Below, piece after piece: positions 18,124 to 50,783 of a DNA stretch of 64,000 nt. The notes beneath the pieces were generated by a model. That model saw only the letters and a program-made list of their open reading frames with translations. It had not been told where the DNA came from and did no database searches. A program made the translations under genes and the position numbers. Where the stretch lies: assembly GCA_001782805.1 (NCBI GenBank), contig MFPT01000002.1, forward strand, positions 5,401 to 69,400. The letters are read 5' to 3'. Each line of letters opens with the position of its first letter. Within the stretch, counting starts at the first letter, position 1. This stretch comes from Candidatus Magasanikbacteria bacterium RIFCSPHIGHO2_01_FULL_41_23 (GTDB taxonomy: Bacteria > Patescibacteriota > Patescibacteriia > Magasanikbacterales > UBA922).

Positions 18124-18702
18124 TTATTGACGCAAGGAAACTTCATATACAACTTGCTCCAACTTCTGTCCGGCTTGCTTTGCCTGATCAAATTTCGTTC
18201 GCAAATAACTGGTCAAATCAAATTCAATCAATGATCCGATAATTTCTTCAGCGGCCGCGGCGCATTCAGCCACGGTTTTAAAATTTCGTTTTGTGGCCGC
18301 TTTAAGAGCATACCGATATAATTCACCTGGTACATCACATAAACCCGCTATAAAAGAGTTATCGCTCATTTTAATTTTACTGACAAAAATGATTTTTCGT
18401 TTCGTTACAAATGAAAAAAATAAACAGGCCTCCACGTATTCTTCAAGAGCGGCTTCATACGCGCCTTCAGACAAAAGCGCGGGATTTTTTTTATGTTTAA
18501 AATTAATTTCTCCGAATATCTTTTCTACAACCGCTAATTTTTCATTAGCCTCTTCCATGTTGTCCCGCTGTAAGGCAAAAATGCAACGCTTGGCACTATG
18601 CAGAGCGTCACCGGCCAACTTGATAACATCCCGTCTATCCTCGCTATAGACATTTAAATTATTTTTAATGTTAGTCATCTTAGACTGGTCAAGATAAGTC
18701 AT
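18124..18702 (-). CDS. Hypothetical protein (192 aa, predicted alpha-helical)
   Basis: Complete ORF overlapping the start of the P-type ATPase gene by 14 nt. No motif was recognised. Confidence 0.45.
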   Translation of the reverse strand: MTYLDQSKMTNIKNNLNVYSEDRRDVIKLAGDALHSAKRCIFALQRDNMEEANEKLAVVEKIFGEINFKHKKNPALLSEGAYEAALEEYVEACLFFSFVTKRKIIFVSKIKMSDNSFIAGLCDVPGELYRYALKAATKRNFKTVAECAAAAEEIIGSLIEFDLTSYLRTKFDQAKQAGQKLEQVVYEVSLRQ

Positions 18703-27390: not shown

Positions 27391-27732
27391 CTATTTTTTA
27401 TTCAATAATGAAACCGTTGCCATGCTAACAATACTCATAATCAAAGCTCCCAAAAATGCTGCGCCAAAATTCGCAACCGCAAAACCATCCACCACACGCG
27501 CCACCAGCCAAAATAACGCGCCGTTAATAACAAAAGTAAACAGCCCCAATGTTACAATATTTAAGGGTAAAGTCAAGAGAATAAGAATTGGTCGGATGAG
27601 GACATTGGCCAAGCCTAAAAAAAGTGCGGCCATAAAAGCCGCAAACCAGCCGGCCACTGTAATTCCGGGAATAATTTGCGTTATAACGAGAAGGGTTGCC
27701 GCGCTTATGATCCAACGTACAATAAACCGCAT
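27391..27732 (-). CDS. DUF360 / phage-holin-4-like small membrane protein
   Basis: 113 aa with 3-4 TM helices. The N-terminus MRFIVRWIISAATLLVITQIIPGI is typical of this family. Confidence 0.5.
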   Translation of the reverse strand: MRFIVRWIISAATLLVITQIIPGITVAGWFAAFMAALFLGLANVLIRPILILLTLPLNIVTLGLFTFVINGALFWLVARVVDGFAVANFGAAFLGALIMSIVSMATVSLLNKK

Positions 27733-29660: not shown

Positions 29661-30185
29661 ATGTCAAATCCTGTCCCAGGATCAGAACAGCGATTGCCTG
29701 ATAAAAATCGAGAGCAAAATTCCCATCAGCCGGAAAACGAAATAAAACCCGCGGATTTTTTGGTGGAAAAAGAAACGAACGAAGAACTGCAAAAAAAAAT
29801 AAAACACGAGGAGGGATTTTTGGATGATACGATTGCCAAAATGCGTGGTCTTTTGCGTTCCACCAAGCAAAAACCCGTTATAATGCCCAAAGTTCGCGAT
29901 GATATAACCTTAAAAATTGAACATATAATGGAGGCGGATTTGGGTGATGCTTTTAATGTATTAACTCCTCTCCAGCAGCAAGAATTCAAATTAAAGGGCG
30001 AACAAACTGCCAGCTTGATTCGAGAATTATTGCAGCAAACGAAAATTAAGGTAAAAAAAATTTTTGCGCTTTTAGTGGCTTGGCTTAGATTTCTTCCCGG
30101 AATTGATCGCTTTTTTTTGGAACAGGAAGCAAAAATTAAAACCGATCAAATTATTGCGTTGTCGCGCCAAAATAAAAAACTGTAG
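29661..30185 (+). CDS. Hypothetical charged coiled-coil protein
   Basis: 174 aa, Lys/Glu-rich. It lies immediately upstream of, and overlaps, the VirD4-like ATPase gene. Confidence 0.4.
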   Translation: MSNPVPGSEQRLPDKNREQNSHQPENEIKPADFLVEKETNEELQKKIKHEEGFLDDTIAKMRGLLRSTKQKPVIMPKVRDDITLKIEHIMEADLGDAFNVLTPLQQQEFKLKGEQTASLIRELLQQTKIKVKKIFALLVAWLRFLPGIDRFFLEQEAKIKTDQIIALSRQNKKL

Positions 30186-30192
30186 CCGACTT

Positions 30193-32700
30193 ATGGAATC
30201 ATCCCAGATATTTTTGATTATTTTGCTTTATATAGGAGGAATCGGTGTTTTCACCGCTATTTTTTTTATAATTCGCTCATTTGTCCGTCCCATGTATCGC
30301 GCGCAAAAAGCATTTGACCGCGTCATTTTGCAAATCATGGTGCCCAAGGAAAAACGATCAGATAGCAGCGGACAAAGCAACGATGAACGCTTGGAGCAAA
30401 TCAAAGAAGAAATCGGCATCACGGAAACTTTATTTGCCACTTTGGCCGGACTTCGACCCGAGAGTGGTGTTGGTGCCTGGTTTCAAGGACGAAACGATCA
30501 TTTTGCTTTTGAAATGGTCGTACATGATAATTTAATTTATTTTTATTTGGCTGTTCCGCCAAAATATCAATCGTTTATTGAACAACAAATTACGGCGCAA
30601 TATCCGTACGCGCAAGTTGAACAGATTCCTGATTATAATATTTTTTTGCCCAAAAGTCAGATTGTGGGCGCGTATTTAGTGGCTAAAAAATCCAATATTC
30701 TGCCGTTTCGCACGTATAAAACCATGGATTCAGATCCTTTGGCCGCGATTTTAAATATCTTAGCAAAAATTCACGATCACAAAAGCACAGCGGCAATTCA
30801 ATATGTGATTCGGCCGGCCAAAAAAACTTGGCGCCGAAAAGGAATTCGGGTAGTTCGCGCCGTAAATAAAGGCGATTCATTTCACCACGCGCTCAAAAGA
30901 AATCACGTTTTAAAATTTTTCACCATGGTGGCTTCAACTTTGTCCGAACAATTTTTGGGAACAAAAGCTACAGAAAAAACACAGCATCAAATTTCCGCGA
31001 TGGAGCAAGAAATGCTCAAAGGAATTGAAGAAAAATTATCCAAAGGCGGACTGGAAGTGACATTGCGTGTGATTAGTGTGTCTGATGACAAAGAAATGGC
31101 CAAGCTTAATTTGGAAAATATTTTGAACGCGTTCAGTCAATATAATTTTTACCAATACGGCAATGAGTTTAGCGCGCTTTTGCCACGTCAACAGCCAACA
31201 TTAATTCGTGATTTTATTTATCGTTCATTTTTGGAACATCGCTCCTTTATTGTTAACACGCAAGAAATGACCGGATTTTGGCATTTGCCACTGCATTCCA
31301 CGGAAACACCAAATATCAAATGGCTGAGTGGCAGACGTGCGCCGCCGCCCAGTAATCTGCCGGAAACCGGTTTATTGCTGGGTCATGTGATGTATCGTGG
31401 CAGTGACACGCCGATTTATATGAAAGAACCTGATCGTCGACGGCATCTATATATTATTGGTAAATCCGGCGCGGGAAAATCGGTGTTGCTGGGAAATTTA
31501 ATCAGACAGGATATTTTGAATGGCAAAGGTGTTTGTGTGGTTGATCCGCATGGTGATTTGATTGAGGATGTTTTGTCGATTATTCCCAAAAATCGCGCGG
31601 ATGATGTGATAATTTTTGATCCTTCTGATGCGGAGCGGCCGGTGGGACTGAACATGTTGGAAGCGAAAACCGAAGATCAAAAAGATTTTGCCGTGCAGGA
31701 AATGATTTCTATTTTCTATAAATTGTTTCCGCCCGAAATGATTGGTCCAATGTTTGAGCACAATATGCGTAATGTGATGTTGACTTTAATGGGAGATATT
31801 ACTGATACGGGCACGATTATTGATATTCCTCGCATGTTCACGGATGATGCCTATGTTAAAAAATATCTTAAAAAAGTTAAGGATCCCGTGGTTCGAGCTT
31901 TTTGGGAAAAAGAAATGGCCAAAACCAGTGACTTTCATAAATCAGAAATGCTCGGCTATTTAATTTCCAAAGTCGGCCGATTTGTGGAAAACGAAATGAT
32001 GCGCAATATTATGGGCCAACAAAAGTCCGGCTTTGATTTTCGCGAAGTTATGGATCAACAAAAAATTCTCTTGGTCAATTTGGCCAAAGGTAAAACCGGT
32101 GAAGTAAACGCCAAATTATTGGGGCTGATTATTGTGGCCAAACTGCAGATGGCGGCCATGGGACGAGCGGATTTACCCGAACCGGAACGTTTGGATTTTT
32201 ATTTATACATTGATGAGTTTCAAAATTTTGTGACTGATTCAATTGCCACGATTTTGTCTGAAGCGCGTAAATATCGTTTGGATTTAACCATTGCGCATCA
32301 ATATATGGGCCAATTGGTGGATGACAAAGGTCGATCCGCCATTCGCGACGCGGTATTAGGTAATGCCGGCACGATTATGACGGGTCGAATTGGACCCGAT
32401 GACGCGGAGATTTTGGTTAAAGAATTTTCACCGATTTTTGGTGTTTATGATCTGCTCAATCCGCCGCCATTTTCGTATTACACCAAAATGTTAATTGACA
32501 ACGAAGCATCGAAGCCGTTTAATATGCTTGGCTATCCTCCGGTTCAGGGCAATCGCCAACTGGGAGAAGCCATTAAACAATTGGCGCGTCTCAAATATGG
32601 CCGAGATCGACGGATCGTGGAAGCGGAAATTATGGAGCGGACACAGTTGGGCGGCGGGGAAAATAAAGCCAAAACCGATACGATCGAAGCAACATTATAA
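30193..32700 (+). CDS. Membrane-anchored VirD4/TraG/TraD-like (type IV coupling protein family) AAA-like ATPase
   Basis: N-terminal TM helix. Walker A YIIGKSGAGKSVLLGN, VVDPHGDL, Walker B FYLYIDEFQNF, and the C-terminal TraG/VirD4-like region (ARKYRLDLTIAHQYMGQL). The N-terminal 350 aa are paralogous to ORF 49094-50539. Confidence 0.6.
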   Translation: MESSQIFLIILLYIGGIGVFTAIFFIIRSFVRPMYRAQKAFDRVILQIMVPKEKRSDSSGQSNDERLEQIKEEIGITETLFATLAGLRPESGVGAWFQGRNDHFAFEMVVHDNLIYFYLAVPPKYQSFIEQQITAQYPYAQVEQIPDYNIFLPKSQIVGAYLVAKKSNILPFRTYKTMDSDPLAAILNILAKIHDHKSTAAIQYVIRPAKKTWRRKGIRVVRAVNKGDSFHHALKRNHVLKFFTMVASTLSEQFLGTKATEKTQHQISAMEQEMLKGIEEKLSKGGLEVTLRVISVSDDKEMAKLNLENILNAFSQYNFYQYGNEFSALLPRQQPTLIRDFIYRSFLEHRSFIVNTQEMTGFWHLPLHSTETPNIKWLSGRRAPPPSNLPETGLLLGHVMYRGSDTPIYMKEPDRRRHLYIIGKSGAGKSVLLGNLIRQDILNGKGVCVVDPHGDLIEDVLSIIPKNRADDVIIFDPSDAERPVGLNMLEAKTEDQKDFAVQEMISIFYKLFPPEMIGPMFEHNMRNVMLTLMGDITDTGTIIDIPRMFTDDAYVKKYLKKVKDPVVRAFWEKEMAKTSDFHKSEMLGYLISKVGRFVENEMMRNIMGQQKSGFDFREVMDQQKILLVNLAKGKTGEVNAKLLGLIIVAKLQMAAMGRADLPEPERLDFYLYIDEFQNFVTDSIATILSEARKYRLDLTIAHQYMGQLVDDKGRSAIRDAVLGNAGTIMTGRIGPDDAEILVKEFSPIFGVYDLLNPPPFSYYTKMLIDNEASKPFNMLGYPPVQGNRQLGEAIKQLARLKYGRDRRIVEAEIMERTQLGGGENKAKTDTIEATL

Positions 32701-32718
32701 AAAATTAAAAAAATAAAT

Positions 32719-33288
32719 ATGGAAAACCAAAATTCCGACACAGTGCCAAAAAAATATCCTGATCCAGCCACTGTTCGCGCGCGATTACAAGTAATTAAAC
32801 GTGAAATTGAGGAATTGATAAAAACTTTTTCCGAAGCAAATCACTCTTCAATCTCAACACCTACTTCAACTTACCTGCCTTTAGCCCATGACGAAGAACT
32901 ATCTTTTTCAGAAATGAGTCGAACTTTGGAAGGCATATTTAATGGTGAAAAAATGATTGGCACGGACAATCAAGAATACCATATCCCGCCCAATTATGCC
33001 AGTAAATCAAAGCTGGTTACCGGCGACCGAATGAAATTAACCATTACTCCAACCGGTTCTTTTATCTACAAGCAAATTGGCCCGATTGAACGTCAGCGTA
33101 TTATTGGAACACTCGACTTTAATCCTGAGCACAATCGCTGGCTGGTTAAAGCGGAAAATGCGGAATATCGCGTATTAACTGCCTCAATCAGTTTTTATAA
33201 AGGCAAAATCGGCGATGGTGTGATTATTCTAGCTCCTCAAATCGGAATGAGCGAATGGGCCGCAGTTGATCATTTGATTGCCAAATAA
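32719..33288 (+). CDS. Hypothetical protein (189 aa)
   Basis: Complete ORF directly downstream of the ATPase, and likely co-transcribed with it. Confidence 0.45.
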   Translation: MENQNSDTVPKKYPDPATVRARLQVIKREIEELIKTFSEANHSSISTPTSTYLPLAHDEELSFSEMSRTLEGIFNGEKMIGTDNQEYHIPPNYASKSKLVTGDRMKLTITPTGSFIYKQIGPIERQRIIGTLDFNPEHNRWLVKAENAEYRVLTASISFYKGKIGDGVIILAPQIGMSEWAAVDHLIAK

Positions 33289-39480: not shown

Positions 39481-40617
39481 TCAAACAATAAAATCAATCA
39501 TATTTCCTCGAGTAATCGTCTCAAAACTCGCGCCCGGATAGGCCGTTGTCCAATCAGACGGCGGACGACCGGATTTATTTCCCCATTTGAATTCATAGCC
39601 AAACAATTTGCCATCTCGTTCTTCCACCCAATCAATTTCTTTTTGGTCATAAGTTCGCCAAAAATAATTATTGGCGTAGAGTCCGGAGTATGATTGTTTT
39701 TTTATCCTCTCCATGACTAGATAATTTTCCCAAAGCAGACCAACATCATCGCGCACAGACAGCGGATTAAAATTATTAATCAACGCGTTTCGTACACCCG
39801 TATCATAAAAATAATAACGCGACATTTTGGTTACTTCTTTGCGCAAATTCCGGCTAAAACCACGAACATTCACTATAACAAAAGCCTTCTCCAATAAATC
39901 GAGATACTTGGCAACAGTCTGTTTATTCATCCCCAAACTGGTTCCAATTTCAGACATAGATACCTCCTTGCCAATCTGATAGGCCAGCAATGTAAGAAGG
40001 TCGCGTATTTTTTTGGCGTTGCGAATATTTTCCAATTCTAAAATATCTTTAAATAAATAGGAATTGACCAATTCGTGCAGATATTCCTCCTGACGCGTAC
40101 GGTCATTAATACTAAATAATTCCGGATAACACCCAAAGACCAATAAATCCTCCAATGATTCCTGAAAGTATTCCAAACCTTTGGTTTCAATTATTTCCGC
40201 GGCCGAAATGGGGAATAAGTTAACGATTTTTTGGCGACCGGTCAATGGTTCCCCGACCTGACGCGCCAGGCTGAATGAAGCTGAACCGCTGGCGATAACT
40301 GACACATCTGGAAAATTATCAACAATAATTTTTAAACTCTGCCCAATTTGGGGAATTTTCTGCGCTTCATCAATGATAATGACTTTGCTATCACCAACAA
40401 ACCGCCTTAATGATTCTATATTCTGAACTGAAAGCGTGGCTTGAACTACGGTTGTTTCTCCGTTGACTATTTTAATGTGCTCTCTAGCCTCGTGATTCTG
40501 GATAAATTCATTAAGCAAAGTTGTCTTGCCCACGCGACGCGGTCCGTACAGCAAAATAACCTTTCCCGGCTGAAGTTTGTCGGCAAGCAATTTTTTGGCT
40601 AATCTATTGATTATCAT
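39481..40617 (-). CDS. AAA-family ATPase with a C-terminal DUF4143 domain
   Basis: Walker A LLYGPRRVGKTTLL, Walker B IIIDEAQ, and a C-terminal winged-helix/DUF4143-like region. Confidence 0.75.
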   Translation of the reverse strand: MIINRLAKKLLADKLQPGKVILLYGPRRVGKTTLLNEFIQNHEAREHIKIVNGETTVVQATLSVQNIESLRRFVGDSKVIIIDEAQKIPQIGQSLKIIVDNFPDVSVIASGSASFSLARQVGEPLTGRQKIVNLFPISAAEIIETKGLEYFQESLEDLLVFGCYPELFSINDRTRQEEYLHELVNSYLFKDILELENIRNAKKIRDLLTLLAYQIGKEVSMSEIGTSLGMNKQTVAKYLDLLEKAFVIVNVRGFSRNLRKEVTKMSRYYFYDTGVRNALINNFNPLSVRDDVGLLWENYLVMERIKKQSYSGLYANNYFWRTYDQKEIDWVEERDGKLFGYEFKWGNKSGRPPSDWTTAYPGASFETITRGNMIDFIV

Positions 40618-40838
40618 ACCGAATTTAGTTAAATAAAGACATTATAATGACCTTATTTTACTAAATTCAGATATTTATGTCAATAGCGCAACTTGGGTAG
40701 AGCTTTCGAGGTATACATACCCCCCACTTGCATTTGGCAAATAGTTTCTGTGTATAACTCCACGAATAACAAAATTTGATCCAATTCCTTAATATGGTAT
40801 AATCTCAATAATTAACTAAACCATGTTAAGCATTTCTT

Positions 40839-41792
40839 ATGAATTATTTACCATCAATCACAAAAATCCGTTTGGAAGAAAAATTGGCCAAACTGAATAA
40901 ACTTCGTCCTTTACCAAATTCTTCGGTACAAAAACTGCGAGAAAAATTTCAGATTGAAATGACTTACAATTCAAACGCGATTGAAGGCAACTCTTTAACT
41001 TTAAAGGAGACTTTTTTAGTTATTAACGAGGGTATTACGGTAAAAGGAAAACCTTTAAAAGATCATTTGGAGGCGAAAGATCATCATGCCGCGCTGGAAT
41101 ATCTTTATGACTTGATAGATAAAGACAAAAAGCACACTGTTTCTGAAATGCTCATAAAAAATTTGCACCAAATTATTTTACAGGAAACTGACAGAGAGTG
41201 GGCTGGTCGGTACCGAAACGCCAATGTAATTATTGGCGGAGCCAAGCATACTCCACCCGATGCTCTGCAAGTACCACAAAAAATGCGTGATTTAATTAGC
41301 TGGCTTATTTCACAAAAAAATAAAATAAATATTATTGAACTAGCTGCTTTACTACACCACAAACTAGTACACATTCATCCTTTTTTTGACGGCAATGGCA
41401 GAACTGCACGCTTGACCATGAACCTATTTCTTATGCAAGCCGGATATCCGTTGGTGGTAATTATGAAAACCGACCGAAAAAAATATTATGACGTGCTGGA
41501 TAAAGCGGATAGTGGCGTATATGAACCACTCCTAAAATTTATTGCTCGCTCAATAGAACGTTCGCTGGATATTTATCTAAAAACGTTAACTCCGGCAACC
41601 ACAAAACAGGAAAAATTTATTTCATTGACTGAAATATCCAAAATTACTCCGTTTTCCGCCAAATATCTAAACTTACTAGCAAGACAAGGAAAACTGGAAG
41701 CATACAAAGAAGGGAGGAATTGGTTAACTTCAAAAGAAGCGATTGAACGGTATTTAAAAAATAGGACAAGACAAAGAAAAATTATAAAATAA
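40839..41792 (+). CDS. Fic-family protein (AMPylase-type) with an N-terminal inhibitory motif
   Basis: Fic motif HPFFDGNGRTARL, and the inhibitory (S/T)xxxE(G/N) motif in TYNSNAIEGN. The C-terminal helical/HTH-like extension is a tentative inference, not supported by a recognised motif. Confidence 0.85.
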   Translation: MNYLPSITKIRLEEKLAKLNKLRPLPNSSVQKLREKFQIEMTYNSNAIEGNSLTLKETFLVINEGITVKGKPLKDHLEAKDHHAALEYLYDLIDKDKKHTVSEMLIKNLHQIILQETDREWAGRYRNANVIIGGAKHTPPDALQVPQKMRDLISWLISQKNKINIIELAALLHHKLVHIHPFFDGNGRTARLTMNLFLMQAGYPLVVIMKTDRKKYYDVLDKADSGVYEPLLKFIARSIERSLDIYLKTLTPATTKQEKFISLTEISKITPFSAKYLNLLARQGKLEAYKEGRNWLTSKEAIERYLKNRTRQRKIIK

Positions 41793-41980
41793 ATGATCCA
41801 CTTAACAGATAAAAAATGTCTTATTATTTATCTAACTTTGGTTTAATTTGCCATGTAATGCCTGTATTGATGCTCCTTGACTGTGAAGTTTTTCCGCTAA
41901 TTCCAATACCTGATTTACATCGAGATCATCACTCAACACTTTACCAATAGAATAAATTATTAAAGCCAACTATAAATATA

Positions 41981-42010
41981 ATTAACCACCGGAAACGACC
42001 GGTGGTTAAT
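41981..42010. terminator. Perfect palindromic hairpin (attaaccaccgg-aaacga-ccggtggttaat), candidate bidirectional terminator
   Basis: 12-bp stem between the convergent Fic gene and the minus-strand operon. The flanks are AT-rich, but there is no long T-run. Confidence 0.4.
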
Positions 42011-42045
42011 TATAGATTTATTTAGCTTAAGAAATTAGAAGAAAA

Positions 42046-42420
42046 TTAATCCTTATGAACCTCGTTCATCTTCAATTGTTTAGCAATTTCAATCCAGATA
42101 TCGGGTTTAATTATAGAGAGAATTTCACTTACTGAAAGAGGAGGTAATTTAGATTTTTCAAGCTTGACTTTTAACCTTCTCAGTTTATCGCTAAGTTTAG
42201 TTGGATCATCCAATGAATATAAAGAATACCGCTCATCTTCTATTGAACTGGATCTCAATAAATCATCTTCACTCTCTGAATAATCAATTGATCCTCCAAT
42301 CTGGAGGATAGCCCACATAACATCACCTGACGCAGCTTTTTCAATGATATTTTTTGCCTCGGCACACTGACCGTCCATGTGATGTCCGGTCGTACAAACT
42401 TTACAAAGTGATTCTGGCAT
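42046..42420 (-). CDS. Small Cys/His-rich (zinc-ribbon-like) protein, paralog of the next gene
   Basis: The N-terminus carries CKVCTTGHHMDGQC. The remainder is acidic and Ser-rich. Confidence 0.45.
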   Translation of the reverse strand: MPESLCKVCTTGHHMDGQCAEAKNIIEKAASGDVMWAILQIGGSIDYSESEDDLLRSSSIEDERYSLYSLDDPTKLSDKLRRLKVKLEKSKLPPLSVSEILSIIKPDIWIEIAKQLKMNEVHKD

Positions 42421-42453
42421 AAAATTAATTTTTACTTAGTTAATTATTAAAAT

Positions 42454-42924
42454 TTATTTTTTCTCTTCACTAAAATATCGTCTGTGAATTTCTGCGATTT
42501 TATTCGCCCATTTTCTCTCTAGCTTTGGCATTTCTTCTTTGTACATTGTAAAAGGATCTTTAAAGTAATTAGGCTCATCAAAATCCCAATCGTCTCGATG
42601 TACTTTTTCGTCTAAACGATCTAATTCTTCTTGATGAGTTTCGTCCATCGAACTAAGATCTTGCCTATCTTGCAGTTTACATTGTTCGCAATCCTTACGA
42701 AAAATCATATGAGAACAGTTTGCTTCAAAATCATCGCCTTTTTGCCATTCTAACAAATCTTCTTTTTGTCTTGCAAGACGATCAAGCATTGCAGTTCTAA
42801 CAGTTTGGATTTGTTCCTCTTTTTTATTTTTCCGTTCTTCGGCAGAAATTCTGGATCCCTGATGACAGGTTGTACAACTAACGCTGGACATTCCATGCGG
42901 ACATGGTTTAAATCGGTCAGACAT
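42454..42924 (-). CDS. Small Cys/His-rich (zinc-ribbon-like) protein
   Basis: Start chosen at MSDRFKPCPHGMSSVSCTTCHQG, which shares the CTT(G/C)H core with the downstream paralog. A second CEQCK pair is present, and the C-terminus is charged and helical. Confidence 0.45.
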   Translation of the reverse strand: MSDRFKPCPHGMSSVSCTTCHQGSRISAEERKNKKEEQIQTVRTAMLDRLARQKEDLLEWQKGDDFEANCSHMIFRKDCEQCKLQDRQDLSSMDETHQEELDRLDEKVHRDDWDFDEPNYFKDPFTMYKEEMPKLERKWANKIAEIHRRYFSEEKK

Positions 42925-42954
42925 AAAATGAAATATAATAAGTAAATAAACCAA

Positions 42955-43872
42955 CTATCTATTTTTCGCTTCCTCCAAAATTTTCTTCACTTCAATTGTT
43001 ATTGCTCCAAACCTGCCTCCCAGAGCATTAGGATTAGTCTCAACAATTTTTAATAAATTAGGAATATCCGCCTCAACGATAAGTTGAGCGTCAATGAGTT
43101 TTTGAATGCATACTTGCTCCACAATCTCCATATTATAACTTACTGCGACTCGTTTGTCTTTATTTTCCTGTGGTTTTGGAGCTGCCGGTTTTTCTTCCTC
43201 CGGATCCGGTTCATTGAAACCTCCAAATTCTATCGTTGGGACAGTAATAGATGTGAGTGATGGATCGGGTTGTTTTTCGATCGGCGTCTTCACCTCTAAT
43301 CTTTTGGGACTTAATGGTTTATCAGGTAGAGGTCTCTCTCCAATCTTCTTATAATGGATGTCATTATTAATAAAACCAAGGGTGATGTGAAAATCCTTCC
43401 TTTCTAAACCAAGGCACTCGCGAAAAGCCGTAGCTTCAGGAATCTCAATAGCAACAAAACAAACTTTTTTGTCTTTATCGGCTTTTACCATTCCCGGCTG
43501 GCTTCCATCGATATACCCGACTCCATTCACTTTTACCGGCGACTGACCACTTTGCAACTGACTGGACAAGCGATTAAGTTGCTCAATCTGCTCATCTGTC
43601 AGCCTACTCAAAATTCCCTTTTCTTGCTGTTCAATAATCGTTACATGAAATTTGCCTCTTGACTTAAACGGCAGAGACATTTTTGCTTGCATCGTCTCTA
43701 GTGTTGGAGTCAAATCCGTATTAACTGTTATTTCAATGGACTTCATGCGAGCCAAACTCTCGCGCGTGAGCTCAGCTAATTTTGGTGCAAAATCCGATAC
43801 CGAAGAAGTTAATGGCTGCTCTGGTTTAATAATTGCTAGAGACTCTGAAATTGGTCGTGTGACTTCAGGCAT
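42955..43872 (-). CDS. 2H-phosphoesterase-superfamily-like protein (LigT / cyclic phosphodiesterase fold) with a Pro/Lys-rich linker and a C-terminal domain
   Basis: Two H-x-T-x motifs, each preceded by a hydrophobic residue: KFHVTII and DFHITLG, about 85 aa apart. That spacing is typical of 2H enzymes. Confidence 0.5.
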   Translation of the reverse strand: MPEVTRPISESLAIIKPEQPLTSSVSDFAPKLAELTRESLARMKSIEITVNTDLTPTLETMQAKMSLPFKSRGKFHVTIIEQQEKGILSRLTDEQIEQLNRLSSQLQSGQSPVKVNGVGYIDGSQPGMVKADKDKKVCFVAIEIPEATAFRECLGLERKDFHITLGFINNDIHYKKIGERPLPDKPLSPKRLEVKTPIEKQPDPSLTSITVPTIEFGGFNEPDPEEEKPAAPKPQENKDKRVAVSYNMEIVEQVCIQKLIDAQLIVEADIPNLLKIVETNPNALGGRFGAITIEVKKILEEAKNR

Positions 43873-43882
43873 AGATAGTACA

Positions 43883-45244
43883 TTATTTTGAAAAAAAATT
43901 CGTTACGACTCGCCTAAAATCTTCTGCATTCAACAATGAGGTTTTTGACGCTGCTATCAAACTTCCGCCTGCTACACAAACAGTTGGATCTCCAATTCCG
44001 AGATATTCTTTTCCGGGCCGAAGAGTCGTCCATGTTTTTAATAACTTTGTTTCTTCTTCACTGAGAGTGCCCTCTTTTTCCTTTTGTCGCAACGAAAGCA
44101 ATATAGGCTCACGTTTTTCGCGTTCAGCGTCATTAAATATAGCTTCAAGGGATGTGAGATCAAACAAATCAAGTGACTCCACCTTCATACCGATATCATA
44201 ATTATCTCCACCTTTTTTACGATCCTGACCCGCATAAACCGCCACAATCGTTTCTGGTGGCATCCGCATGTAAGCCATGTTGGTCACCGCAAGAGGACTT
44301 AATTTTGTCTGCCCAAAAATCAGGAGTGTAACTTCCAAATTTGCCCCCTCCTTTGTTCTGATGGTCACACGACGTTGTTCAGCGGATTCAAACTCTTGAT
44401 TAAATGCCTCGACATCTGTCAAGGATTTTTCACGTCCAATTCTTAATAATTCTTTGAATTCATCTGAAAATGTCAACCCATTTGTTGTATCAAGATCTTC
44501 GAAATTAATCTGAAATCCTTCAGATTCTGCTTTTGCACACGCATTAAAAATCGCAAACATTTGTGTGATCAGCTCGCCATGAAATTGTTCGCTCACCGCT
44601 TTCGAGCGTCCTGCCTTTTCTTCTTTTGGAATTTCTGCAGAACGCCAAATCGCGCCAATCGCTGCGTGCATTTTATCAAAAAGAACATTTTTTAGGCTTC
44701 CGAAATAGCCGGGTAAACTTTTAATAAATCGTTGCGGATCCGTTTCGCCAAAGCGTCCATAGTCCACAAGATTCACAATTTCTCCCAATTTTTGTGTAAA
44801 TTTTGGAAGACCGCTCACGGATCGTGTGTCCACAAGAATTTTTGTGAGATATGTCGCCGTGATTGAATCAAGATCACTGTCAATATGACCGCTCACCCCT
44901 TTTATGTTTTTTTCTTGGATTAGAGCCAAAACCTCATCCGGGAAATCCGCGACCATTTTCGCCGCACAACGTCGAGTCCCGCCTTCTGGCATCTCTAATA
45001 CAGACGCATCAACACCATGATGGTCAATAATTCCATTTCGAATCGTCCAGCGATAAATTTCATCAACTTCTTCCGGAGTTTGAGGAGAACGCATTTCCAA
45101 AGGTGGAATAATCGGTTGGCCAGTATCAACCACGACCACATCGGGAGACAAGCCTTCGGCACGTCCCGCTTTTTGCACACTAGCAAAACAATTTTCCGGA
45201 CTCGTTGGCCTCACTTCCATTTCAGGTGTTTCTGTATCTCGCAT
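43883..45244 (-). CDS. Hypothetical protein (453 aa) with a DHH-like tripeptide (IIDHHGVD)
   Basis: Complete ORF and the first gene of the four-gene minus-strand operon. Assignment to the DHH family is weak: the DxD motif I and the GGGH motif were not found. Confidence 0.5.
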   Translation of the reverse strand: MRDTETPEMEVRPTSPENCFASVQKAGRAEGLSPDVVVVDTGQPIIPPLEMRSPQTPEEVDEIYRWTIRNGIIDHHGVDASVLEMPEGGTRRCAAKMVADFPDEVLALIQEKNIKGVSGHIDSDLDSITATYLTKILVDTRSVSGLPKFTQKLGEIVNLVDYGRFGETDPQRFIKSLPGYFGSLKNVLFDKMHAAIGAIWRSAEIPKEEKAGRSKAVSEQFHGELITQMFAIFNACAKAESEGFQINFEDLDTTNGLTFSDEFKELLRIGREKSLTDVEAFNQEFESAEQRRVTIRTKEGANLEVTLLIFGQTKLSPLAVTNMAYMRMPPETIVAVYAGQDRKKGGDNYDIGMKVESLDLFDLTSLEAIFNDAEREKREPILLSLRQKEKEGTLSEEETKLLKTWTTLRPGKEYLGIGDPTVCVAGGSLIAASKTSLLNAEDFRRVVTNFFSK

Positions 45245-45646: not shown

Positions 45647-46237
45647 ATGATGAGATGTTTAAAAATCCTGCGCCGTCACTGGTTAGCTACCATTATTTTA
45701 TTCGGTAGTTTGATTCTCATGATTATATATGGGAATAGTCAAAACATCGAATCGAATAGTAATAAACTCCTCAATCAAGAATCACAAAGTGTAGAAATAA
45801 AGTTAAAAGAAAAATCAATCTCTGTTCCTACAAATCAAAATTATGACACGGAAAATAAAAATGAAAATAACACTTCAACGCAAACCAACAGTCCAAAAAC
45901 CATAGAACAAAAACCAAACGCAGACGCTCTTGAAAAAAATCTAATCGCGGCCAAAATTATCATTGGTGAAAATGAGTATTTAATCAATGTTACGCCTTCA
46001 AGTTCAGTGTATGACGCGCTTATTCAGATGAACAAATCCGGCCAAGCCAGTTTTAATTTCAAAGAATTTAGTGGACTCGGATATTTTGTAGAAGGAATCA
46101 ATGGTAAAACAAGTGACAAATTACGTGGACGATATTGGATTTATTATATTAACGGCGTCAAAGCGCAAATGGGGATTTCCCAATACATTCTTAAATCAAA
46201 CGACATAATAACCTGGAAATATGAAAATCAAGAATAA
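45647..46237 (+). CDS. Membrane-anchored DUF4430-like (transcobalamin-like C-terminal domain) protein
   Basis: N-terminal TM and an Asn/Ser-rich linker. The C-terminus RYWIYYINGVKAQMGISQYILKSNDIITWKYE fits the DUF4430 pattern W.Y.VNG......Y.L..GD.I.W.Y. Confidence 0.45.
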   Translation: MMRCLKILRRHWLATIILFGSLILMIIYGNSQNIESNSNKLLNQESQSVEIKLKEKSISVPTNQNYDTENKNENNTSTQTNSPKTIEQKPNADALEKNLIAAKIIIGENEYLINVTPSSSVYDALIQMNKSGQASFNFKEFSGLGYFVEGINGKTSDKLRGRYWIYYINGVKAQMGISQYILKSNDIITWKYENQE

Positions 46238-48536
46238 CGCGTTCGGATATTTAATTTCCCTTTTGGTTTTAACTGTATTATTTTTTCCCGTACTAACACG
46301 CGCGGAAGAAGAAAATTCAACCACTACGACAACTACAGCAACACTCACAGAACAAACTACCACTACTACACCGACGATAACAGAAACACCGACTGCACTA
46401 GAAACTACGACCATAACAGAAATATCCAGCTCAACCCCAGTTACTGTTTTAGATTTTGCCCAATTAACGATTCGCATTGACAATACGATTATTTTTTCTG
46501 ATTCTATCGCGATTAGCCCTGCCACGACTACAGTAACTGATAATCAAAATAAAAACTATGATGTTGTGGATAACACTGTTTTAGGAATGATATTTAATGC
46601 TGATTCAGCCACAACGACGTTTGCCGTTACTGATCTGGCCTATTATTCTTCGTTTGATTCATTTTTAATTAATTGTATTGCAGTCGCGGACACGTCGTCA
46701 TGCTATAACTGGCAATACACGGTCAATGATGTCTATCCCTACATGGGAATTGATGATTACATATTGAAAAATAATGATGATGTCTATTTGTATTTTGGCA
46801 ATCAAACGCGATTTAACTTGGCAACATCTACTATTACCACTGCAGAACCACTAGCTATTACAACTGAAAAATATGATTATCGAAATAATCAATGGACTCC
46901 ACGACCCAATGTAACAGTGGGAGCAACCAAACCTGATCCTAATAATCCATGGAGTCCAATTGTAGTTACTTCAACACTCACCAATGAATTCGGTTTGGCC
47001 AATCTTTATATAAGCGTGACCGGTACATACAACGTCGGAATTAGTGAAGATTATTATTATCCGACCCAAGCAGTTACAGTTCTTGATATTATTTTAAATA
47101 ATGAAACAACGACAACTACCGTAACATCAACTCCGACAACGACGACGTCAACAATAGAAGTCATAAATTCAAATAATTCCGGTGGATCAGGTTCTACTAC
47201 TGCTGAAATTATTCCGACCATGGATGTTGTGAAAGCAATTGAATTCTTAAAAGCGCAACAAAATAAAACCACTGGCGCGATTGGTTTCCCGAACGGAGTC
47301 GAGGGACTCACCACAAGTGGTTCAGGCACTCTCTATAGTGATTGGGCCGCAATCGCCTTTGGCAGCGACGATAATTTGGGCGAAGCCAAAAATCTTTTGG
47401 CGACATATTTAAAAACCGATCCCAGTCCGGGTACAGCGGCGACCGATTTTGAGCGACGCGCCATGGCCATAATGTCTTTGGGAATCAATCCGTATTCGGG
47501 AACCAAAACCAATTATATTGCGGAAATTCTTAAAACATATCAAGCCAATCAATTTGGCGACAGCGGATTGGTCAATGATGATATTTTTGCGCTTTTTCCT
47601 CTGATTAAAGCCGGTTATACAATCAGTGACACAGAAATTAAAAATAGTGTGGCCTTTATTTTGTCGCGCCAAAATCAAAATGGTGGTTGGGAAAGTCCGG
47701 ACTTAACCGCCGCGGCTGTCCAAGCTTTATCTTTGGTCAAATCACAAATCGGAGTAAATGACGCATTAATTAAAGCTAAAGAATATTTAAAAACCAGTAC
47801 AAAGAATAATGGCAGTATTGGTGATAATGTTTTTTCCACCAGCTGGGGAATTCAGGCAATTGTTTCACTTAATGAATCAATTAATTCCTGGAATGGAACA
47901 AATGAAAATCCGTTAACGTATTTGGCCAAGCAACAGCAAACTGATGGCGGATTTGAATCAGCATCCGGCTCGCTTGATAATCGCATCTGGGCAACAAGTT
48001 ATGCTATTCCCGCGGCACAAAATAAAGTTTGGGCGGATATTCTTGTTTCATTTGCTAAACCGGTCATACAAAATACTGTTGAGACCAATCAAACCAGTTT
48101 TGGTAGTGGCGGCAGCGGAGAATTAGTCACAAGTACACCAACAATCACACCGGCAATCATAAACCAAGCAACATCAACTCCAAACAATAGCGAATCAGAA
48201 AAACTTTCCTCCAGACCAATTGAAACAGCAGTAAACGAATCACCGGAAAACAATAATGTTAAAGAAGTAGTCATAGAAAAAATGACAGAGATTGCCAAGA
48301 TTGAATCAAAATTTTCTAATTCACCATCTGTTGAGTTAGCCCAAAACCAATTAACGGTTCTAAATGAATCAGAATCTCCTATTGACAGAAATAATAATGT
48401 CGGCGAAATCATAACCACTGTGATCCCGTTAAAAAACACATCACCAATTGCTGGTCGCGAATTTGCTGGAGCCGCGACAATGGCTAGCAGCGCTGGCGCT
48501 TATTTAGCCTGGCGATTCTTCCAATCGTTAATCTAA
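46221..48536 (+). CDS. Large secreted Thr-rich surface protein with a DUF4430-like domain and prenyltransferase/squalene-oxidase-like (alpha/alpha-toroid) repeats
   Basis: Signal peptide, then poly-Thr tracts. DDYILKNNDDVYLYFGNQ is DUF4430-like. The repeats GGWESPDLTAAAVQALSL and QQTDGGFESASGSLDNRIWATSYAIPAA are prenyltransferase-like. The C-terminal tail is hydrophobic. Confidence 0.55.
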   Translation: MKIKNNAFGYLISLLVLTVLFFPVLTRAEEENSTTTTTTATLTEQTTTTTPTITETPTALETTTITEISSSTPVTVLDFAQLTIRIDNTIIFSDSIAISPATTTVTDNQNKNYDVVDNTVLGMIFNADSATTTFAVTDLAYYSSFDSFLINCIAVADTSSCYNWQYTVNDVYPYMGIDDYILKNNDDVYLYFGNQTRFNLATSTITTAEPLAITTEKYDYRNNQWTPRPNVTVGATKPDPNNPWSPIVVTSTLTNEFGLANLYISVTGTYNVGISEDYYYPTQAVTVLDIILNNETTTTTVTSTPTTTTSTIEVINSNNSGGSGSTTAEIIPTMDVVKAIEFLKAQQNKTTGAIGFPNGVEGLTTSGSGTLYSDWAAIAFGSDDNLGEAKNLLATYLKTDPSPGTAATDFERRAMAIMSLGINPYSGTKTNYIAEILKTYQANQFGDSGLVNDDIFALFPLIKAGYTISDTEIKNSVAFILSRQNQNGGWESPDLTAAAVQALSLVKSQIGVNDALIKAKEYLKTSTKNNGSIGDNVFSTSWGIQAIVSLNESINSWNGTNENPLTYLAKQQQTDGGFESASGSLDNRIWATSYAIPAAQNKVWADILVSFAKPVIQNTVETNQTSFGSGGSGELVTSTPTITPAIINQATSTPNNSESEKLSSRPIETAVNESPENNNVKEVVIEKMTEIAKIESKFSNSPSVELAQNQLTVLNESESPIDRNNNVGEIITTVIPLKNTSPIAGREFAGAATMASSAGAYLAWRFFQSLI

Positions 48537-48576: not shown

Positions 48577-49149
48577 TTGAATGGCATTATGAACAAAATA
48601 AATAAAGAAAACACATCGTATTCTCAAACTAGTTTATTAGTTGCGATTGGACTCGTAATTTTTGGCGCAATTGCTCGTCTTGTTCCTCATCCAGCTAACT
48701 TTGCGCCACTCGGCGCTATTGCAATTTTTGGCGGATTATTTTTGCCTCGCAAACTGGCGATATTAGTTCCTTTATCAGCTATGCTTGTCAGTGACATTGT
48801 AATTGGCTTTTATTCCTGGTCAATAATGCTGGTAGTGTATTTAAGTTTTGCCTTAACCGCGTTTGCCAGCACCAAAATTAAACATTCTTTTAAGGCAATT
48901 CTCGGCACAACTTTAGCCGGATCAATTTTATTTTACCTCACCACCAATGCCGCAGTCTGGGCATTTGGCACTATGTACGCGCACGATTTTGCCGGCCTGA
49001 TGCAGAGTTACACCATGGCCATCCCCTTTTTCCGCAATAGTTTATTGAGTGATTTATTCTATACGAGTGTTATGGTAACCAGTTATATTCTTATTACAAA
49101 TTTTCATACCAATTATCATATTCAATCACTTCACCGGAATCAGTCGTAA
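48577..49149 (+). CDS. Polytopic membrane protein (ECF-transporter S-component-like topology)
   Basis: 190 aa, 5-6 TM helices. Its position downstream of the DUF4430 proteins suggests a substrate-capture role; this is an inference. Confidence 0.4.
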   Translation: MNGIMNKINKENTSYSQTSLLVAIGLVIFGAIARLVPHPANFAPLGAIAIFGGLFLPRKLAILVPLSAMLVSDIVIGFYSWSIMLVVYLSFALTAFASTKIKHSFKAILGTTLAGSILFYLTTNAAVWAFGTMYAHDFAGLMQSYTMAIPFFRNSLLSDLFYTSVMVTSYILITNFHTNYHIQSLHRNQS

Positions 49150-50539
49150 AATTTTTACTCTTTGTTGTTGATGTAACTTTTGTGATACCTGACGGATTAA
49201 GTGGTTTATTCAACAAGGTAACAGCATCGGGACCACCTAAATATTCGACCGGTAAACCAACCGGAGGTTCCGCTTGTTTGGTGGCGGCTTTGGAAACCAA
49301 CGGAGTTTTAACATGCGACATAGGAAAATGCCAAATCGTCGCCAATTCTTCAATATTCAAAATACAAGTGGGACTTTTGGTATTCATGGAACGCTTGCGA
49401 TAGGCTTCAAATAATTTTGCTGGCTTATCTTTCTTTTTGCCTTTTGGTGCTTCCACGGCGACAATAGAATTGGCACTGGGAATATTATATTGATTAATCG
49501 CTCCCAATAATAAACTAGCTCCACGCCGAGGATTAAATGATTCTTTGCGCGCCACATATACCGCTCGCATTTTTGCCTTAAACGCCAACTTGGTAATTTT
49601 CTGTTCCATCAGCTCAACTATTTTATTTGTTCCCGGAGTTAAACGCACGGTATCAGCATGTTCATCTTCTGCTTCCTCCTTTGGACTGGCTTCGCGATTA
49701 AAAACTTGATCACCAATTAAGACCAAACTTTTCATTAAAAATTCCACAAATTTATCGCCGATATTTTCCATCGTATCATGCTCGGCAATTCCCAGTACTT
49801 CCTTTACTTTATTTATTGCGCCTTCTTTCCAATCATTATTGATTGGCTCAACCAATATCTGCCACCACATTTGCTCGCCCGGACCCAAACGAGTAAAACT
49901 TTCCAAAAAAGTTCCCATCGGATCTTTTAAGACCGTATCTTTGGAAATTGAATGCTCAAATTCGCGATAGGATCGAAGCGGATACGCACTATGCTCGGCC
50001 AAACCAAAATCGTTAACCCATAAATCATGGGTTTCATTCGGAAATTTTTCCGGAACCAAATGTACATAATCTTCAATTTCGGTAATTTCCGCATCCGGAT
50101 ATTGCGCATAAATTGACGCCTCCACCAAATCGCGAAAAACCGATTCAGTCCAAACAACAAATTGAATGTAACCCTCGATACTGACAATTTCAAAACTAAA
50201 CCAGCGTTGAACATAGCCGTCTTTAATTTTTTCCTTAAGTCCGGATGGTGCCAACGCACCCGCCACATGCGAAAATAACTGTTCAACCGCCATTGGTGTC
50301 TGTACATTTAAAGCTGGAATATCAATGGCTAAAATCACTGGTTTCCAATCATGAACATATTTTTCTTCTTTCAATTCAATAAAAAAATGCAAAGCCTGAC
50401 TAAAGATCGGTCCGATCATCAAAAGCCAGCCCATGACCGCAAACCATTCAATGGCTATGACGACAACACCTTGAGCCAAAAAAAAATTCAAGGCATGGAC
50501 AATAGTTGCGCCGTCAATAGCAAAAAAACCAAAGTCCAT
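49094..50539 (-). CDS. Membrane-anchored hypothetical protein, paralog of the N-terminal domain of the VirD4-like ATPase (30193-32700)
   Basis: IYAQYPDAEITEIEDY...YPLRSYREFEHS...FLESFTRLGPGEQMWWQILVEP aligns with ITAQYPYAQVEQIPDY...LPFRTYKTMDSD...ILAKIHDHKSTAAIQYVIRP of the ATPase protein. No Walker motifs. The 3' end overlaps the convergent gene 48577-49149 by 56 nt. Confidence 0.55.
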   Translation of the reverse strand: MDFGFFAIDGATIVHALNFFLAQGVVVIAIEWFAVMGWLLMIGPIFSQALHFFIELKEEKYVHDWKPVILAIDIPALNVQTPMAVEQLFSHVAGALAPSGLKEKIKDGYVQRWFSFEIVSIEGYIQFVVWTESVFRDLVEASIYAQYPDAEITEIEDYVHLVPEKFPNETHDLWVNDFGLAEHSAYPLRSYREFEHSISKDTVLKDPMGTFLESFTRLGPGEQMWWQILVEPINNDWKEGAINKVKEVLGIAEHDTMENIGDKFVEFLMKSLVLIGDQVFNREASPKEEAEDEHADTVRLTPGTNKIVELMEQKITKLAFKAKMRAVYVARKESFNPRRGASLLLGAINQYNIPSANSIVAVEAPKGKKKDKPAKLFEAYRKRSMNTKSPTCILNIEELATIWHFPMSHVKTPLVSKAATKQAEPPVGLPVEYLGGPDAVTLLNKPLNPSGITKVTSTTKSKNFTTDSGEVIEYDNWYENL

Positions 50540-50540
50540 A

Positions 50541-50711
50541 TTAATGATGGTGGAGACGATTGATTATAATAAAATAAACTACGAGTACGAGCGGAGTGGC
50601 AAACCACCAACCATAAATTCCCGCGATATAACCGCCGGCGTAGGCCACGCCACACAGGATGGTACACAAAAAAGCAATTATTTTTTTTAATTTATCTTCT
50701 GACATGGACAT
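50541..50711 (-). CDS. Small membrane protein (56 aa), translationally coupled to the downstream gene
   Basis: Translated by hand: MSMSEDKLKKIIAFLCTILCGVAYAGGYIAGIYGWWFATPLVLVVYFIIINRLHHH. Its stop codon overlaps the ATG of ORF 49094-50539 (TAATATG). It falls below the ORF-track size cut-off. Confidence 0.3.
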   Translation of the reverse strand: MSMSEDKLKKIIAFLCTILCGVAYAGGYIAGIYGWWFATPLVLVVYFIIINRLHHH

Positions 50712-50783
50712 ATAATACAATTATATTTATAAATAGCGCTCAATATAATTGTATTATACCACACTTATGAAATGAATCGAAGA

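Follow-up and report, generated by a model that had tools for sequence, protein, structure and literature searches.

Genes of the locus

We analysed a 64-kb stretch of contig MFPT01000002.1 (positions 5,401 to 69,400, hereafter the window) from Candidatus Magasanikbacteria bacterium RIFCSPHIGHO2_01_FULL_41_23. The analysis centred on gene A, in which an ATPase resembling type IV coupling proteins (T4CPs) is fused to an N-terminal domain of the Pfam family DUF8128, and on gene B, which encodes a DUF8128 domain on its own about 16 genes away. The window carries core chromosomal genes (LigA, MetRS, PriA, DnaG, RpoD, CysRS, DnaX, SecA, SecDF and MurB), and the nearest homologues of both A and B are found in Candidatus Magasanikbacteria. 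The open reading frames (ORFs) of A and B, and all motifs quoted for them in an initial annotation made from the sequence alone, exist as described. The main features are as follows, with coordinates of the window.

29661-30185, plus strand: up174, 174 aa, no Pfam match, conserved partner gene of A
30193-32700, plus strand: A, ATG start, 835 aa, fusion of a transmembrane (TM) helix, DUF8128 and a T4CP-like ATPase
30205-30276, plus strand: N-terminal TM helix of A, aa ~5-28 (Kyte-Doolittle and AlphaFold2 (AF2) model)
30316-31368, plus strand: DUF8128 (PF26449) of A, aa ~42-392 (Pfam annotation of homologues, hidden Markov model (HMM) of the B family, invariant columns, Foldseek)
31369-32532, plus strand: T4CP-like nucleotide-binding domain (NBD) of A, aa ~393-780 (Pfam, Foldseek to TrwB)
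31459-31482, plus strand: Walker A motif GKSGAGKS of A, aa 423-430
aa 449-456 of A: motif VVDPHGDL
31672-32055, plus strand: inserted all-alpha domain of A, aa ~494-621
32206-32229, plus strand: Walker B motif YIDEFQNF of A, aa 672-679
32263-32316, plus strand: ARKYRLDLTIAHQYMGQL / AHQ motif of A, aa 691-708
49094-50539, minus strand: B, 481 aa, stand-alone DUF8128 protein
50541-50711, minus strand: sm59, ~56 aa from the first ATG, two-helix membrane protein

The window was scanned with Pfam on the 47 larger ORFs, with HMMs on all six-frame ORFs and with phmmer using two VirB4 queries. These scans detected no VirB3, VirB4, VirB6, VirB8 to VirB11 or relaxase gene, in line with the previously noted lack of VirB4, VirB6 and VirB8-10. 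Apart from A and B they brought up neither a DUF8128 protein nor a T4CP-like ATPase.

The ATPase domain of A

A is a member of the T4CP (VirD4/TrwB/TraD) branch of the HerA/FtsK-type P-loop ATPases, and the proposal of the initial annotation that the ATPase groups with T4CPs rather than with HerA or FtsK was borne out by Pfam, NCBIfam and the predicted fold. Among Pfam models, the ATPase half matched T4SS-DNA_transf (E 3e-10, aa 404-743), TrwB_AAD_bind (2.4e-8, aa 415-728) and TraG-D_C (1.4e-5); the match to DUF87 (1.8e-8) was confined to aa 396-523 at the P-loop end, and AAA_10 was absent. NCBIfam gave SXT_TraD (5.9e-14) and a VirD4-like family (2.5e-8). Models for HerA and FtsK were weak on A (helicase_HerA of NCBIfam, 0.017; FtsK_SpoIIIE of Pfam, 0.018). 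In the AF2 model of A (pLDDT 78) the best fold for the ATPase part was TrwB (Foldseek: TMt 0.60, 17% identity, E 1.6e-12), followed by DotL and Cag-beta, with HerA lower (TMt 0.43-0.49, E 1e-10 to 6e-9), and a block of helices at aa 494-621, placed after the Walker A and before the Walker B strand, corresponds to the all-alpha insertion. In phmmer searches a plasmid T4CP-like protein matched A at 1e-46 to 9e-53 and TrsK/VirD4 at 6e-6; the classical VirD4 of pSK41 (TrsK) was thus only weakly similar to A, and in an hhalign comparison a VirB4 (TrsE) was similar at the P-loop alone. Intact Walker A, DEF Walker B and AHQ motifs were present in all 119 full-length family members (119/119).

A thus shares with T4CPs a RecA-like NBD, the Walker A and B motifs, the inserted all-alpha domain and an N-terminal membrane anchor. 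It departs from them at its N-terminus, where a single hydrophobic helix (aa ~5-28) and a DUF8128 domain of 350 aa precede the NBD instead of the typical two-helix membrane domain of T4CPs. It also differs in its modest scores against T4CP models (E 1e-8 to 1e-14) and in being a chromosomal gene amid housekeeping genes, with core-like conservation and no neighbouring relaxase or type IV secretion system (T4SS) genes.

The DUF8128 domain and its predicted fold

The homology between the N-terminal domain of A and the stand-alone protein B, previously deduced from shared motifs, proved significant in a pairwise alignment (BLASTP E 3e-16, 21% identity over 356 collinear columns), and an HMM built from the B family alone recovered aa 41-438 of A at E 3e-68. 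Over 83-89 sequences from both families 21-22 columns are invariant. The motif AQYPYA at aa 135-140 of A corresponds to AQYPDA at aa 145-150 of B, and the domain ends in A with the invariant WHxP (aa 363-366) and APPPSNLP (aa 383-390). PF26449 is annotated on all close homologues of A and B; the name DUF8128 is that given for an 81%-identical orthologue of A, and B-type proteins appear in UniRef as 'DUF8128 domain-containing protein'. The window proteins were placed in PF26449 by the precomputed Pfam annotation of these homologues together with our own HMMs. No papers on DUF8128 or PF26449 were found in the literature.

The N-terminal region of A had been described as a membrane domain. Its TM helix is present, but the domain itself is, according to the structural models, a TM-anchored soluble alpha/beta domain. 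Hydrophobic windows above 1.6 (Kyte-Doolittle) are confined to aa 1-32 of A, where the AF2 model has a long helix (aa 2-41). B has one or more hydrophobic helices at aa ~10-46, DUF8128 at aa ~64-430 and a low-confidence tail at aa 431-481, and its AF2 model (pLDDT 83.6, pTM 0.75) shows a confident alpha/beta domain after one or two hydrophobic helices. With no further TM segment between them, DUF8128 and the ATPase have to share one side of the membrane, presumably the cytoplasmic one.

The predicted fold of DUF8128 resembles the N-terminal domain of VirB4. When the model of B was compared with PDB by Foldseek, all matches with E of 1e-3 or below were VirB4/TrwK chains of the R388 T4SS (best E 7e-5, probability 1.0, TMq 0.36); a weaker chain of the ESX core complex followed, and TrwB, HerA and FtsK chains were absent. 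Since B has no ATPase and T4CP structures went unmatched, the matching part of VirB4 would be its N-terminal domain. With this VirB4-like fold in front of a T4CP-type ATPase, A has the architecture of VirB4 combined with a T4CP-type motor. In agreement with this, the full-length model of A aligns collinearly to TrwK (about 920 columns, E 2.2e-15), which ranks ahead of TrwB. A resembles VirB4 (TrwK of R388; PDB 7o42, 7o43 and 8rtd) in combining an N-terminal alpha/beta domain with a C-terminal ATPase, and differs from it in its own TM helix, the TrwB-type all-alpha domain, low TM-scores and the lack of a VirB4 relation at the sequence level.

That A is itself the VirB4-type signature ATPase of a T4SS, mis-scored by T4CP models and accompanied by B as a TrsD-like partner, is in our estimation very improbable. 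Such an identity would agree with the full-length model of A, whose best Foldseek match is VirB4/TrwK, and with the exclusive VirB4 matches of B at E of 1e-3 or below. It would also agree with gene spacing: no T4SS component is more abundant in Patescibacteria than TrsD, which is mostly found no more than 20 coding sequences away from virB4 (PMC12102498), and B lies about 16 genes from A. However, no VirB4 family model of Pfam or NCBIfam matches A: CagE_TrbE_VirB and AAA_10 are absent, and VirB4_plasma (1.2e-3), Bac_Flav_CT_G (0.012) and the TraG type match locally, at 1e-3 or weaker. Neither of two monoderm VirB4s used as phmmer queries (TrsE and an AAA_10 VirB4 from Bacillus) recovers A, which the plasmid T4CP-like protein finds readily; TrsE aligns at the P-loop alone, and the ATPase of A has the TrwB-type all-alpha domain. 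The likeness of B to TrsD/TraD of pGO1/pSK41 is one of concept, in that both are without an ATPase and resemble the N-terminal part of a T4SS ATPase (PMC12102498). TrsD has 227 aa against 481 aa in B, and its homologues are usually next to virB4, whereas B is not. We do not regard B as a TrsD homologue, as no similarity between TrsD and DUF8128 was detectable (hhalign E 0.2).

Relatives on plasmids and phages

Hundreds of relatives of the ATPase half of A are encoded on plasmids, and some of them carry the N-terminal domain as well. A Bacillus plasmid protein (WP_121549396.1, plasmid NZ_CP032854.1) has the same two domains as A (hhalign E 2.6e-35 over 679 columns). Its N-terminal domain matched the profile built from B proteins only with a probability of 97.6% (E 4.5e-12), and that of a second family (WEZ26732.1, Bacillus, CP120602.1) matched the same profile with 97.1% (E 5.6e-11); the N-terminal 340-360 aa of the two proteins were used for these tests, and both are annotated as 'DUF87 domain-containing protein'. 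The neighbours of the WP_121549396.1 gene are TcpE, a Replic_Relax gene, a VirB4 with an AAA_10 match and genes for conjugal transfer, and the second plasmid homologue sits in a Tcp-like module. Among phage families, phrog_5156 (PHROG, function not assigned) matched aa 101-817 of A (E 4.5e-81) and aa 111-411 of B (E 2.8e-12). Its members include gp156 of Bacillus phage G, which the B-only HMM recovers at E 1.8e-19, and proteins of SPO1-like phages; WCS68077.1 of vB_BsuM-Goe26 is a further phage relative.

The DUF8128-ATPase fusion is not specific to the lineage of the window, in departure from what the initial annotation had suggested, because the same fused architecture is found by sequence comparison in conjugation modules of Bacillus plasmids and in phages of Bacillus. 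These proteins combine a DUF8128-like N-terminal domain with the same ATPase subfamily at 21-28% identity to A. Unlike A, they lie on mobile elements near a relaxase-type gene, TcpE and a VirB4-like ATPase, and in the aligned plasmid protein there is no room for an N-terminal TM helix, as the alignment begins at its residue 8. We found no experimental studies of the Bacillus plasmid or phage DUF8128-ATPases in the literature. A homologue from Bradyrhizobium lies amid CHAT/TPR genes, and its N-terminal domain shows no similarity to DUF8128.

In the jumbo phage G a VirB4-like gene, gp155 (P-loop_TraG 1.6e-15, AAA_10), lies directly upstream of gp156 (L100, 3186-7328), forming a pair of T4SS-type ATPases in a phage genome.

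B, sm59 and the split gene form

Distant stand-alone DUF8128 genes, with products 32-41% identical to B, were found at five loci (L093-L098, four distinct genes). At each of the four loci that allowed a comparison of the downstream sequence (L094, L095, L097 and L098) the DUF8128 gene is followed, 3-322 nt on, by a separate ATPase gene whose product is 42-50% identical to the C-terminal half of A. The three full-length split ATPases align to A from aa ~384-395, which is the domain junction, to ~804-825; the gene of L098 ends at the contig edge after 101 aa. Both genes together thus reproduce the architecture of A. The split pairs differ from A and B in being two genes, in an often Pro/Gln-rich tail of the DUF8128 protein and in a low-complexity ATPase tail of 130-470 aa. 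They are preceded by a gene for a protein with Sigma70_r4 and HARE-HTH domains, whereas B is preceded by sm59; this protein, used as a query against the window and its relatives, matched RpoD only. SecD-SecF lies just upstream in three of five split-type loci (L093, L095 and L096), and B likewise lies downstream of SecDF.

Because distant stand-alone DUF8128 genes directly precede separate ATPase genes, B is, from gene order and similarity, the split-gene form of the two-part protein represented by A, and in this lineage it has lost or lacks a neighbouring ATPase gene. The protein thus exists side by side in a fused (A-type) and a split (B-type) version. The stand-alone paralog pointed out in the initial annotation is real, although it is such a split form and not an independent invention. 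No ATPase gene lies beside B, either in the window or in related loci containing B, where an HMM of the split ATPases finds one protein per locus, namely A itself. In 10 loci an orthologue of B (41-56% identical) is encoded no more than 10 kb away from A.

A copy of the PPxNLP motif, which in A marks the domain junction, occurs within the last 14 residues of 58 of 135 stand-alone representatives and in none of the 120 Magasanikbacteria B proteins. Split-type DUF8128 proteins (L094 and L095; P0358, P0370, P0377 and P0385) have long, disordered Pro/Gln-rich tails that end in APPxNLP(I/F), and the partner ATPases of L094 and L095 have low-complexity tails of 330-470 aa ending in PGQSVxFD. The tail of B holds NFTTDSG (aa 463-469, 49133-49153), which resembles NFVTDS after Walker B in A (aa 679-683, 32227-32241) and whose T and D are kept in at least 90% of B-family proteins. 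Going by this resemblance, the segment may have been left behind when an ATPase half was lost, or it may act as an interaction peptide.

The small gene sm59 lies 1 nt upstream of B and encodes two hydrophobic segments. A homologue precedes B in the complete genome OZ246405.1 (E 1.5e-9) and in six further loci. The protein shows no detectable similarity to the VirB3, PrgI and TcpE families, and nothing like it precedes A. In related loci, SecF is separated from sm59 by a terminator and a promoter-like site, TGnTATA(A/C)T, which makes it probable that sm59 and B are co-transcribed as a unit of their own. SecDF was rejected as an operon partner of B for the same reason. In the window itself, the gap between SecF and sm59 holds a perfect 17-nt AT-rich inverted repeat, TATAATACAATTATATT (50711-50727) and AATATAATTGTATTATA (50742-50758), with a spacing of 14 nt, which overlaps a TATAAT -10-like element and abuts the ATG of sm59. 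The repeat is lineage-specific, since relatives have a G+C-rich terminator hairpin and the TGnTATA(A/C)T site at this place.

Conservation of A and its partner gene up174

A is under strong purifying selection. Orthologues in 80 genomes are 46-81% identical, and the median identity of A (66%) exceeds that of CysRS (60%) and DnaX (43%); locus by locus, A is more conserved than CysRS in 34 of 38 syntenic loci and more conserved than DnaX in all 38 (38/38). Its position between CysRS and DnaX is fixed in more than 80 genomes and across ABY1 lineages.

The stop codon of up174 lies 7 nt before the ATG of A. The gene is found immediately 5' of A in 78 of 80 Magasanikbacteria-type loci, the other two being truncated contigs, and also in Kerfeldbacteria, Uhrbacteria and a third ABY1 lineage (E 3e-12 to 4e-21). 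The conserved C-terminal part of about 105 aa is predicted to be helical and has the motif W-L-x-x-(L/I)-P-G-x-N-R-F-F-L-E-Q-E-A-K-I-K. No match to up174 was found in Pfam, NCBIfam, PADLOC or PHROG. HMMs of up174, of sm59 and of dn189, a gene located 3' of A (see below), gave no matches in the Bacillus plasmid and phage loci or among the Sigma70_r4/HARE-HTH proteins. A scan for promoters and terminators around A gave nothing above shuffled expectation.

We consider it highly unlikely that A has no core role and is either left over from an integrated conjugative element or prophage or serves as a defence ATPase of the HerA or MADS mad8 kind. The plasmid and phage relatives fit such an identity, as do PADLOC matches of the ATPase half to mad8 (6.3e-15) and, weakly, to HerA models, the CHAT/TPR surroundings of the Bradyrhizobium homologue and an accessory islet with Fic, AAA_14/DUF4143 and 2H phosphoesterase genes between A and B. 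On the other hand, DUF8128 proteins have no PADLOC match, and no integrase, relaxase or T4SS genes lie nearby. The catalytic motifs are intact in all members, and conservation above that of an aminoacyl-tRNA synthetase and of DnaX excludes a decaying mobile-element remnant. The integrated-element origin of A was accordingly rejected on synteny and conservation.

Proposed function

A monoderm-type, relaxase-less chromosomal T4SS has been described from about 80% of Patescibacteria genomes (Quinonero-Coronel et al. 2025, PMC12102498). The same study counted 5,713 homologues of VirD4-type T4CPs in 2,918 of 3,035 genomes, about two per genome, of which 148 lie near virB4. Patescibacteria are host-dependent, and no T4SS before theirs had been shown to be essential for growth (PMC12102498; PMC10633639); the essential T4SS cluster reported by Wang et al. 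(2023, PMC10633639) is without a recognisable coupling protein. Orphan T4CPs in the candidate phyla radiation (CPR) are thus already known as counts. The initial annotation had stressed the orphan state of A, and indeed no T4SS genes lie nearby, but this is nothing unusual, as a location far from virB4 is the rule in Patescibacteria (PMC12102498).

The reading that we favour, with moderate confidence, is that A is a translocation ATPase of the T4CP family with a VirB4-like N-terminal domain, which may feed a T4SS channel. The family assignment, the VirB4-like architecture, the fused and split gene forms, the relatives encoded beside conjugation genes or a VirB4-like ATPase, the strong conservation of A with up174 and the chromosomal T4SS known from Patescibacteria speak for it. 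A would assemble as a membrane-anchored hexameric motor, by analogy with TrwB and VirB4, and DUF8128 would be its membrane-proximal docking or assembly module, a part played in the R388 machine by the N-terminal domain of VirB4. B together with sm59 may join or scaffold an ATPase ring, either that of A or one encoded elsewhere, and up174 may serve A as a small adaptor or regulator. DNA, nucleoprotein or protein would be passed by the motor into a membrane channel, for which the relaxase-less VirB4-based T4SS encoded elsewhere on Patescibacteria chromosomes is the most plausible candidate.

Several observations weigh against this reading. TM-scores to VirB4 are low (0.29-0.36), so the structural match is of moderate strength; the DUF8128 models were built on shallow alignments (83-89 sequences), and the Foldseek output comes without alignment ranges. 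In profile comparisons DUF8128 showed no sequence similarity to the N-terminal domain of a Bacillus VirB4, reached a probability of only 0.3% against pSK41 TrsD (hhalign) and found nothing among PDB sequences. The split arrangement was seen in four loci compared. A survey of 84 related loci (1.5 Mb in all) brought up no T4SS gene closer than 10 kb to A. Finally, T4CP homologues occur in 2,918 genomes and VirB4 in 2,417, about 500 fewer, and the t4cp homologue of S. epibionticum is reportedly non-essential while its T4SS is essential (PMC12102498); both points argue against an obligatory coupling.

The last two points bear equally on another explanation, which we regard as possible but less probable, namely that A is a housekeeping translocase independent of a T4SS. 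The fused system (with up174) and the split system (with the Sigma70_r4/HARE-HTH protein) would then have been exapted as self-contained motors, for nucleic-acid import or export or for chromosome handling at division, with no docking on a VirB4 machine. An exaptation of t4cp was raised by the authors of the survey themselves (PMC12102498). The fixed position of A amid CysRS and DnaX, a conserved partner of its own and a conservation better than that of both neighbours are consistent with such a role, and so is the protein with two DNA-binding HTH domains that precedes the split system. Against it, non-CPR relatives of the same architecture lie in conjugation modules or beside a VirB4-like gene; t4cp is often unlinked from virB4 in classical systems as well (PMC12102498), and the housekeeping synteny may be positional alone. 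Furthermore, no channel component of its own is evident, and A has a single TM helix.

A broader and rather doubtful suggestion is that DUF8128-ATPases form a third deep lineage of the VirB4/VirD4 family, with a VirB4-type N-terminal domain on a coupling motor, and perhaps a T4SS-independent core machine of ABY1, fused and split, each form with a small partner, for the transport of nucleic acid or protein across the single membrane of these host-dependent cells. If so, they would be a living intermediate for the origin of T4CPs. DUF8128-ATPases bear in any case on the relationship between VirB4 and VirD4.

We found no description in the literature of DUF8128, its VirB4-like fold, the fused and split pair or the partner genes. 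The locus gives the orphan T4CPs an anatomy, consisting of a proposed VirB4-like DUF8128 docking domain, small conserved partners and a mutable PPxNLP motif at junction or tail. The fused and split gene forms are Rosetta-stone evidence for a joint function of DUF8128 and the ATPase, and the question of T4CP exaptation becomes testable through interactions, co-occurrence and phenotypes.

Neighbouring genes and other observations

Downstream of A lies a further small gene:

32719-33288, plus strand: dn189, 189 aa, starting 18 nt 3' of A, without family match

A gene for a SWIB protein (Pfam E 2.7e-28) is also located near A. Two family-less small ORFs (174 and 189 aa) and the SWIB gene had been given as the flanks of A. 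All three are present, but only the upstream ORF is tightly linked to A. While the neighbourhood of up174 and A is conserved, dn189 travels with DnaX: it is found 3' of A in 66 of 80 loci, and in distant lineages it lies directly 5' of DnaX, up to four genes apart from A. The dn189 family extends across ABY1 (including L090, L091 and L092) with a conserved PPNYASKSKLVEGD...YKQIGPIER, and SWIB sometimes stands between dn189 and DnaX. Pfam, NCBIfam, PADLOC and PHROG gave no match for dn189. Both dn189 and SWIB were rejected as components of the A system, as they track DnaX and not A across lineages; dn189 is probably a neighbour of A and a candidate replication-associated protein.

The accessory-looking islet between A and B (39481-45244) encodes an AAA_14/DUF4143 ATPase, a Fic/DOC protein with a helix-turn-helix (HTH) domain, a 2H-phosphoesterase (2H-SAK) and family-less ORFs of 166 aa and 453 aa. 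Two adjoining genes for DUF4430 proteins are located at 45647-46237 and 46221-48536. The larger protein, of 771 aa, looks secreted or surface-exposed; it contains stretches rich in Thr and a repeat region weakly resembling squalene-hopene cyclase. Amid the housekeeping genes, the window also encodes a Translin-family protein (18124-18702, E 1.1e-17) and a membrane protein of the Phage_holin_4_2 family (27391-27732, E 7.9e-34). Many public records of metagenome-assembled genomes (among them L008, L010, L012 and L015) bear the title 'uncultured Gammaproteobacteria bacterium' yet carry Magasanikbacteria-type proteins and synteny, which is an apparent error in the titles.

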